This document shows positions 58,837-60,603 of a DNA stretch of 64,000 nt, one piece after another (within the stretch, counting starts at the first letter, position 1; the number at the start of each line of letters is the position of its first letter). This stretch comes from Eledone cirrhosa. Taxonomy: Eukaryota. The DNA is taken from assembly GCA_964016885.1 (NCBI GenBank), contig OZ024742.1, forward strand, positions 97,278,001 through 97,342,000, in the 5' to 3' direction. The notes beneath the pieces are model-generated. The model made no database searches, was not told the DNA's origin, and was given only the letters and a program-made list of their open reading frames with translations. The position numbers and the translations under genes are program-made.

Positions 58837-59462
58837 GTTGGAAAAAAAATTTTCAAATAATATTTTTACATAATACGACACCACGGGGTGTTGTATTATT
58901 TACGAATGAACCCCTGTATTAGGTGGGTCACTTGTTCTAAACTTTTATCAAGTTTAAAACTTGAATAAAATGTTTAGAACGGTTGAAAACGAGGTAAACT
59001 GTTGAAAAAAACTGGAGGCGATAAGAAGCCTGGCTTCACCTTCAATAATAATAATAATTGTTTCTACTTTTGGCACAAGGCCACCAAATATCCAGTACAT
59101 TACTGGTACTTTATTTTATCGACCCCATAAGGATGAAAGGCAAAGTGGCACTACAACGCTATGAGCTGTCTGTCGAAGCAGCCGATGAAAGCAGGCGAAG
59201 GTGACGTCATTCGTCAAACATCGTTTATTTCCGTATTACTACCACGCGTAGGTGGAGTTACTTAAATGAAATTTTTTATTTTATTTTATTAAAGCATATA
59301 GATGTAAGTGGAGTTACTTAAATGAAATTATTATTTTTTTTTTTATTAAAGCATATAGATGTAAGTGGAATTACTTAAATGAAAATATCACGCGTTTTTT
59401 TTTGTTTTTTTTTTATTAAAACATATCGATGTGAGTGGAGTTACTTAAATGAAAATATAGGT

Positions 59463-59478
59463 GGCTCTTAAAAGGGCC
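59463..59478 (-). other. Histone-3'-type stem-loop, one mismatch (GGCCCUUUUAAGAGCC-ACC)
   Basis: Left-arm counterpart of 60064-60079. Confidence 0.5.
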
Positions 59479-59894
59479 AAATTAGAAAACAAATTTAAGT
59501 TAATTAGAAAACAAGTCATGGTTATCAAATAAATTGAATTTAATCATTTATATTTTCATAGTCATGGTTATCAATGTAGAAAACAAGTCATTTTCACCCA
59601 CAGTGGAATTACTTGTGACAGCTAATAACATGAACTTAGATGAATTTTCACCAACAGTGGAGTTAACTTAAATGAAAATATAGGTGGCCGTTATGGAATT
59701 AACCATCGCGATCTTTCTATCACTACCGCTACTACAGCAAATACCATCAATCTCCACGGGAACTGTCTCTTGTCTCCATGTGGACTGTATCCATGCTTTT
59801 GAATAAGGTTGGTGAAAAAAATTTGTTTTCTAAACATTTCTTCATAATGGGTTGGTGAAAAAAATTTGATAACCATAAATTTGTTTTGTAATTT

Positions 59895-59910
59895 GGCCCT
59901 TTTAAGGGCC
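59895..59910 (+). other. Histone-3'-type stem-loop (GGCCCUUUUAAGGGCC-ACC)
   Basis: 6-bp stem with UUUA loop plus ACC, matching the metazoan histone mRNA stem-loop consensus. Confidence 0.6.
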
Positions 59911-60063
59911 ACCTATATTTTCATTTAAGTTAACTCCACTGTTGGTGAAAATGATTTGTTTTCTACATTGATAACCATGACTATGAAAATATAAATGATT
60001 AAATCCAATTTATTTGATAACCATGACTTGTTTTCTAATTAACTTAAATTTGTTTTCTAATTT

Positions 60064-60079
60064 GGCCCTTTTAAGGGCC
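60064..60079 (+). other. Histone-3'-type stem-loop (GGCCCUUUUAAGGGCC-ACC)
   Basis: Identical to 59895-59910. Confidence 0.6.
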
Positions 60080-60603
60080 ACCTATATTTTCATTTAAGTA
60101 ACTCCACTTACATCGATATGCTTTAATAAAAAAAAATAATAATAATTTCATTTAAGTAACTCCACTTACATCTATATGCTTTAATAATAAAAAAAAAGTA
60201 AATAAAAATCGCGTGAAAAAAAAAAATTTATTTAAGTAACTACACTTACGCGTGGTAGTAATACGGAAATAAACGATGTTTTGCTTTCATCGGCTGCTTC
60301 GACTGACAGCTAATAGCGTTGTAGTGCCGGCAAAGTTAATCTCGGCGGGATTTGAACTCAAAATAGCAAGGCGTAACTCTATGCTGGAAAGCATGGCGTC
60401 TGACCCTCTACCGATACGGCCAATCCAACATATAAAATAATAATGATGAAATAAATAATAACAGCAATAATGATAGCAATGTCGGTAAACACATATGTAT
60501 ATGTATATGTGTGGTGTGTGTGTTTGTATATATGTCTGAGTTTAACTCTCTCTATATATATAAACATATATATACATTCATATATATATATAAATTATAT
60601 ACG

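Follow-up and report, generated by a model that had tools for sequence, protein, structure and literature searches.

The window analysed here is a 64,000-nucleotide stretch (G000:C3:97278001-97342000) of a 3.0 Gb octopus genome, and it contains a non-autonomous Merlin element whose parts are listed in Table 1. The element has the architecture of a foldback transposon: long modular inverted arms enclose a short centre, and the inner arms, each 215 nt long, are 95% complementary. An earlier note on this DNA had placed the element within an exact 8-bp target-site duplication inside a SINE, and this stands, since both flanks are identical and, among the SINE loci retrieved, 61 contiguous empty copies carry the 8-mer once. 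The copy in the window encodes no transposase, and a 59-nt remnant of the ORF lies between its two arms. Its histone-type stem-loops end no gene and are inherited modules of the arms; the 46-nt form of the inner cassette (59895..59940) is typical of the 5′ arm of the parent element.

Table 1. Features of the Merlin element, numbered from the first base of the window.
Feature	Position	Strand	Remarks
Non-autonomous Merlin foldback element, 1182 bp	59147..60328	.	Identified from arms, TIR-sharing family and target-site duplication
Left 8-bp target-site duplication, inside SINE	59139..59146	.	GGCAAAGT
Right 8-bp target-site duplication	60329..60336	.	GGCAAAGT
Left terminal inverted repeat (TIR), 47 nt	59147..59193	+	96% complementary to right TIR
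Right TIR	60282..60328	-	Pairs with left TIR
Two stem-less repeats, downstream part of H4 cassette	59290-59331, 59347-59388 (span 59290..59388)	-	
Full H4-derived cassette, outward-facing	59417..59478	-	Stem-loop 59463-59478, one stem mismatch
Cut cassette: last four stem bases, spacer and HDE-like core	59656..59689	-	34 nt, 100% identical to H4 3′ end
Remnant of transposase ORF 5′ end, 59 nt	59693..59751	+	93-95% identical to three parent copies
Inner cassette, 46-nt form	59895..59940	+	Stem-loop 59895-59910, AAGT 59927-59930; 45/46 identical to H4 3′ end
ATTAAA, possible rival poly(A) signal	59998..60003	+	Site reads AATAAA in transposase-bearing copies
Outer full cassette	60064..60125	+	Stem-loop 60064-60079, AAGT 60096-60099; 61/63 identical to H4 3′ end at G000:C7:67458526
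Stem-less repeat, downstream part of cassette	60142..60183	+	By comparison with the cassette

A pattern search recovered the exact 16-nt hairpin on the forward strand at 59895 and 60064, a version with one mismatch on the reverse strand at 59463-59478, and a fourth copy cut at 59686-59689, each precisely where the earlier note had put it; none of 100 shuffles reached this count for the window. The hairpin has the features of the histone consensus (a 6-bp stem with G at its second position, a 4-nt loop with U at positions 1 and 3, and a 3′ A) and is predicted to form when the RNA is folded. The Rfam Histone3 model, recommended earlier as a check and now run, gave 37.0 and 34.0 bits for the two forward-strand copies, at or over the gathering score of 34, and 25.6 and 14.8 bits for the reverse-strand and cut copies, respectively. 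No histone-fold match of the genome falls within the window’s interval, in agreement with the previous observation that it holds no histone ORF.

The proposed histone origin of the loop could be sharpened considerably: the loop belongs to a copy of a host H4 3′ end that includes the downstream element. A 63-nt block of the arms is identical at 61 positions to the 3′ end of the H4 gene at C7:67458526, with the match starting exactly at the first G of the stem and running about 47 nt past it. Since the cassette extends past the cleavage site, it came from DNA or unprocessed RNA and not from mature mRNA. For comparison with the host we used histone genes taken from 30 of 67 histone-fold matches and from 27 ten-kilobase pieces. 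The motif WWGT stands at +16 or +17 in 34 of the 45 distinct genes with a loop, and its conservation leads us to infer that it is the functional core of the host’s histone downstream element (HDE). Behind the WWGT core of the host genes (L115-L141) comes a C/T-rich run, which sets it apart from the purine-rich AAAGAG type. The element carries AAGT at +17 and is identical to the H4 gene through this AAGT; for a random WAGT window the corresponding figure is 7%. The earlier caveat that no HDE follows the loops was thus wrong, as the downstream element is there in its host form. At the level of sequence, their H4 origin marks the element’s hairpins as real histone signals.

A second caveat, that the usual A-rich 5′ flank is missing, proved correct: host loops have A at -3 in 44 of the 45 genes and at -2 in 41, and the element is without these adenines. 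The stop-to-stem distance of the host genes is 19-40 nt. An SLBP gene is present in the genome (PF15247, over cut-off). For U7 snRNA, the best RF00066 match scored 29.7 bits, below the cut-off, and has a 5′ part unsuited to the host downstream motif; a designed pattern gave 10 matches against 20 in the reversed control, none of which combined a promoter motif with a convincing hairpin.

Genome-wide, the 19-nt loop-plus-ACC occurs exactly 608 times (its reversed control, 0 times), and exact TIR ends number 467 for a young-type 16-mer and 106 for an old type. Searching by TIR for autonomous relatives, as had been suggested, led to transposase-bearing copies, and these confirm the Merlin identity of the family: copies with the window element’s TIR encode a 300-aa DDE_Tnp_IS1595 protein in a continuous, intronless ORF (PF12762, 70.4 bits on transposase P0001), and the family has the TIRs with terminal GG and the 8-9 bp target-site duplications by which the available text of PMC8101967 defines Merlin elements. 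Full ORFs of about 300 aa with all three motif blocks were present in three of 38 young copies scanned. With 150 of 703 candidates scored, at least about 65 genomic places show high identity to the transposase; among the scored candidates, other Merlin families of this genome are at most 49% identical to it. The closest named transposases are those of Octopus bimaculoides and O. sinensis (72-86%). When the element was inspected for a histone-like promoter, a single CCAAT box was found, which is not distinctive.

Several unusual forms were also encountered. Giant members of the family have matching TIRs and 8-bp target-site duplications 23-28 kb apart and mutually homologous interiors composed of LINE fragments and tandem repeats (L184-L201; G000:C2:36344524-36369827, C1:392475292-392498874, C1:304002453-304030870, C1:103169014-103196008 and C2:101129692-101155195), and the exact young-type ends include many further TIR pairs with a spacing of 25-50 kb. 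We considered the 23-28 kb forms as virus-like and rejected the idea, because such interiors have no distinct gene set. Two transposase ORFs are found in several Merlin copies that are inverted dimers (L073, L075, L080, L232, L218). One small contig (G000:C1421:13738-122361) has old-type TIR ends at intervals of 11-18 kb, which suggests a large tandem repeat containing the element.

In the transposase-bearing copies, a sense loop lies behind the stop codon in 41 of 56 distinct 3′ ends. The prediction that a parental transposase ORF would end shortly upstream of such a loop was borne out, at a distance of about 137 nt: among the ends with a loop the spacing is 137 nt in 19 and 115 nt in 6, with a range of 75-497 nt. 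The typical value lies outside the 25-60 nt reported for metazoan stop-to-stem distances in the available text of bioRxiv 10.64898/2026.10.14.759114. The 16-nt hairpin is perfect in 30 of the 56 ends, 22 of which also retain the exact spacer and AAGT, and an antisense mirror copy is found in the 5′ arm in 36 of 49 5′ ends (we dropped one match in the wrong orientation with four mismatches). The 5′ flank of the loop reads AATTT in 39 of 41 copies, without the adenines that host genes have. In 31 of 39 copies the stem is preceded, at 35-75 nt, by an AATAAA or ATTAAA, a hexamer that 60% of shuffled sequences also contain. In the predicted fold, a module lying upstream pairs with the HDE-like core.

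A tree of 52 ORF 3′ halves separates an old from a young clade, with rough support values of 100/100 for the split. The loop is absent from all 11 old-clade copies, five of which have complete arms, and present in 37 of the 41 young-clade copies, the remaining four being cut or nested ahead of the loop site. Between early and late young copies, pN/pS is 0.27 at a pS of 0.137, as opposed to 0.78 for private mutations, and we therefore conclude that the lineage was expressed and selected after the capture. No constraint specific to the cassette is seen, because the other arm blocks are as unchanged as it is: fixed changes affect 0 of 62 cassette sites and 4 of 346 sites in the other blocks. The projection behind these counts chooses the closest match where modules are repeated, which biases it towards zero. 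Within a set of 167 arm modules, many found by exact search, 48 deviate, with neither a compensatory pair nor covariation among them, and half-stem modules are common (38 of about 150). A donor-type loop, with C at loop position 4, was seen in one of the 167, next to an H3 gene (L117:~7970, C2:142.16 Mb). The idea of one clean insertion into an arm module was set aside, as it fits the late lineage only and the right junction varies.

The old-type copies record earlier stages. DNA from behind the cassette-donor H4 gene is carried by 16 of 30 loci with old-type TIRs (12 of 22 elements as paired), in stretches of up to about 600 nt that are 7.6% diverged (32/420); here, as in Pack-TIR elements, host DNA from a single locus lies within TIRs and has been amplified. 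In three copies (L336, L332 and L342) the H4 DNA starts after the loop, which shows that the H4 flank spread as a passenger. L386 and L221 have the loop together with a host-type 5′ flank, inverted in both arms in L221, and the young clade has kept 63 nt in both mirror arms, with a flank that now reads AATTT. Judged from TIR type and content, in an unrooted series, the order appears to have been no H4 DNA, long flank, loop with host flank, and trimmed cassette. The old Pack-type subfamily with H4 downstream DNA (L336, L332, L342, L318, L329, L321, L331, L326, L322 and L386) retains bases that have since been deleted at the donor locus. Besides the cassette match, the 30 kb around the donor H4 gene contain no piece of the family today, and the overlaps at capture junctions are only 1-2 nt. 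Template switching with nearby DNA is a known route of capture, and animal TIR elements commonly take up nearby DNA with short microhomology (PMC8277862, available text).

Family members are also found at histone loci more often than their genomic density predicts. In the 270 kb around histone genes, exact TIRs number 4 where 0.042 would be expected, and exact loops 6 where 0.055 would be expected; these are clustered and not independent. Within a few kb of histone genes the family is about 100-fold denser than the genome mean. Parts of it were seen in 5 of the 27 histone pieces, as compared with 1 of 20 outer flanks, 0 of 4 U1 pieces, 0 of 12 arbitrary pieces and 1 of 16 tubulin pieces, the last being a match known beforehand; at ±1.5 kb the counts are 3 of 30 for histone genes and 0 of 30, 0 of 30 and 0 of 19 for controls. 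The enrichment over the genome mean is clear, whereas that over other gene controls is not significant (Fisher p 0.064 for histone pieces versus pooled controls). Histone clusters with family copies lie on C2 and C7 (L117, L119, L122, L125, L139, L369), and two histone gene sets are inverted duplicates (L117/L118, L130/L131). One transposase-bearing copy, at C2:321571784, faces an H3 gene and starts 107 bp after its stop codon. An old-type piece (L125) is also at a histone locus; among the 100 old-type ends listed, none is near a histone gene, where about 0.9 would be expected at equal enrichment. The U7 snRNP is concentrated at histone loci, according to the available text of PMC10730174.

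A second Merlin lineage came from a scan of metagenome contigs that covered the best 80 of 358 relatives plus one from viral contigs. The top match (L387, contig Ga0193947_1007559; 49% aa identity) has a sense hairpin at L387:1241-1256, 84 nt behind the stop and upstream of a TIR-like end, with a perfect 6-bp stem, a CTTT loop and the flanks AAAAC and ACCAC. The 5′ adenines are therefore present, and no AATAAA was found in 200 nt. Histone3 gives this loop 28.7 bits (E 6e-5), below the gathering score, and in the part of the element covered by the contig it is a single, non-mirrored copy. L387 resembles the octopus cassette only at the loop and, in a quick protein tree, falls in a separate clade with gastropod Merlins (SH-aLRT 98), whose member L400 has an intron-like insert, an AATAAA and no loop. 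Under the strict loop rule, 1.02 Mb of background gave no match and 6.48 Mb of shuffled sequence gave 3. Of 104 other Merlin-like loci examined, 95 have 120 nt or more behind the stop, and L387 is the one positive among them; many of these may come from hosts without the histone-end pathway; no loop was found in the 23 loci of other Merlin families in this genome or in 80 of the 81 collection loci. One of the latter scanned relatives, L393, has one non-canonical hairpin, far away. L387 is known from one contig, which may be a chimera.

The cassette’s origin and anatomy are thus a matter of observation, and several accounts can be given of what it does. We favour one whose chances we regard as roughly balanced, namely that this Merlin family captured a host H4 3′-end signal behind its transposase and that the transposase mRNA is likely cut via SLBP and U7. 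The capture could have taken place when a gap close to a histone cluster was repaired with a switch of template. SLBP and the U7 snRNP would then cut the transposase message at the 3′ cassette, as they do for histone messages, and the resulting mRNA would be non-polyadenylated and probably S-phase-coupled. Efficiency would be partial, owing to the degraded 5′ flank and the competing AATAAA; two 5′ adenines are reported to be needed for wild-type SLBP affinity (PMC10388802, available text), and SLBP is required for Drosophila processing and partly bypassed in mammalian processing (PMC5435866, available text). Of the single explanations, use as an RNA end best accounts for three things together: the place behind the stop, the trimming to the signal and the independent second case. 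Counting against it are the missing 5′ adenines, the upstream AATAAA, the long distance from stop to stem, the lack of a U7 match over cut-off, the want of cassette-specific constraint, the antisense mirror copy, the half-stem and deviating modules, the predicted pairing of the HDE-like core and the fact that L387 is one locus among 95, with a score below gathering. L221 and L386 also had the host-type 5′ flank, which has since been lost, and old copies amplified the H4 flank without the loop. The main rival is that the cassette is a neutral passenger, taken up by Pack-TIR capture of the H4 flank and then trimmed and mirrored by module shuffling, with its place behind the stop a by-product of the arm and the mRNA polyadenylated at the upstream AATAAA. 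We take this possibility seriously, while thinking it rather less than probable. It is in keeping with the presence of H4 flank, several times starting after the loop, in 16 of the 30 loci that have old-type TIRs (12 of 22 elements), with the 23-28 kb of host DNA in the giant copies, with the loss of the SLBP-type 5′ flank, with the existence of mirror, half-stem and stem-less modules, and with the lack of cassette-specific conservation; capture of nearby DNA is common in such elements, and an insertion bias to histone loci would make captures recurrent. It explains less well why just the block from the stem to the downstream element, out of about 600 captured bases, survived in the lineage with the transposase. 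Over its 63 nt that block differs by 1 substitution, while the flank captured with it is 7.6% diverged (32/420), a weak argument given that the donor is partly constrained. With its own canonically flanked loop behind the stop, L387 is an independent case, and such a result is hard to obtain twice by drift.

Two further accounts start from the mirrored placement. The outward signals might act as a shield against read-through, cutting crossing transcripts as they enter the second arm and so limiting both foldback dsRNA, a silencing trigger, and read-out into the flanks, however the transposase mRNA itself ends. This would explain the mirror copy, it fits the copy at C2:321571784 that faces an H3 gene, and when 8 elements were truncated at their first sense loop, less of the RNA was self-paired in 15 of 16 strand cases. 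However, the drop in pairing is geometric and follows any cut made early in that arm, the measure is noisy, with a rise in one case, and cassette-less old copies still spread, so we consider this role improbable. A role at the DNA level, in which the transposase or a host protein would recognise the near-palindrome as a cruciform or subterminal binding site, or in which the palindrome would help the element home to histone loci, appears very improbable to us. Symmetric placement in both arms, retention of the palindrome and downstream block after loss of the RNA-relevant 5′ flank, and the density of the family at histone loci are what it would lead one to expect, but the old clade transposed without the cassette (106 exact ends), its piece L125 is also at a histone locus, half-stem modules are tolerated, and the L387 copy is single and non-mirrored in the part covered.

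Returning to use of the cassette as an RNA end, a broader version can be put forward more tentatively: Merlins may have taken over the histone-only mRNA pathway more than once, placing a borrowed stem-loop and HDE on an intronless transposase, whose message would be cleaved by way of U7 to give a non-polyadenylated, S-phase-peaking mRNA, and gathering at histone loci. Sister-chromatid gap repair in S phase raises transposon copy number.

Each component of this arrangement has a familiar counterpart. The family shares with the Merlin superfamily (IS1016/IS1595-related; PMC8101967) its DDE_Tnp_IS1595 transposase, terminal GG, 8-bp target-site duplication and TIRs, but here the arms carry a captured histone 3′-end cassette; the main text of that survey has no occurrence of histone, stem-loop, UTR or polyadenyl. 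Like the metazoan histone pre-mRNA 3′ signal (RF00032; SLBP plus U7 snRNP), the cassette has a 6-bp stem, a 4-nt loop, G at stem position 2, a 3′ ACC, a host-type downstream element and an intronless ORF upstream, whereas it follows a transposase, lies 137 nt from the stop, is without 5′ adenines, and has an upstream AATAAA and a mirror copy. Pack-TIR and Pack-MULE elements and the Drosophila foldback FB4-Ssk, as described in the available text of PMC8277862, likewise have host DNA inside their TIRs, become multicopy after capture and have rearranging repetitive arms. Here, by contrast, it is an RNA-processing signal that was kept, in a lineage with a transposase, and not part of a gene stranded in a dead copy. 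U7 has also been connected with transposable elements through the repression of HERV1/LTR12 by U7 snRNA via HDE-like motifs (PMC11417402), but there U7 represses transcription, and the available text claims no stem-loop 3′ end or captured histone DNA. Our search of openly accessible papers found nothing on Merlin elements or other transposons with a histone stem-loop; searches for transposon insertion preference for histone gene clusters and for mollusc U7 with the histone downstream element also found nothing, and the available text of bioRxiv 10.64898/2026.10.14.759114 has no occurrence of “transpos”.

Replication-dependent histone mRNAs are described in the available text of PMC5054213 as the only non-polyadenylated protein-coding mRNAs of animals. 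If our reading is true, a transposase mRNA that ends in histone style would break this exclusivity, and a cut-and-paste element would gain a simple means of S-phase timing for its enzyme. Even if the cassette is neutral, the 608 exact loops confound annotation with Rfam Histone3 and could end host transcripts. Because the steps of the capture are preserved within the family, its old and young elements form a natural test pair.
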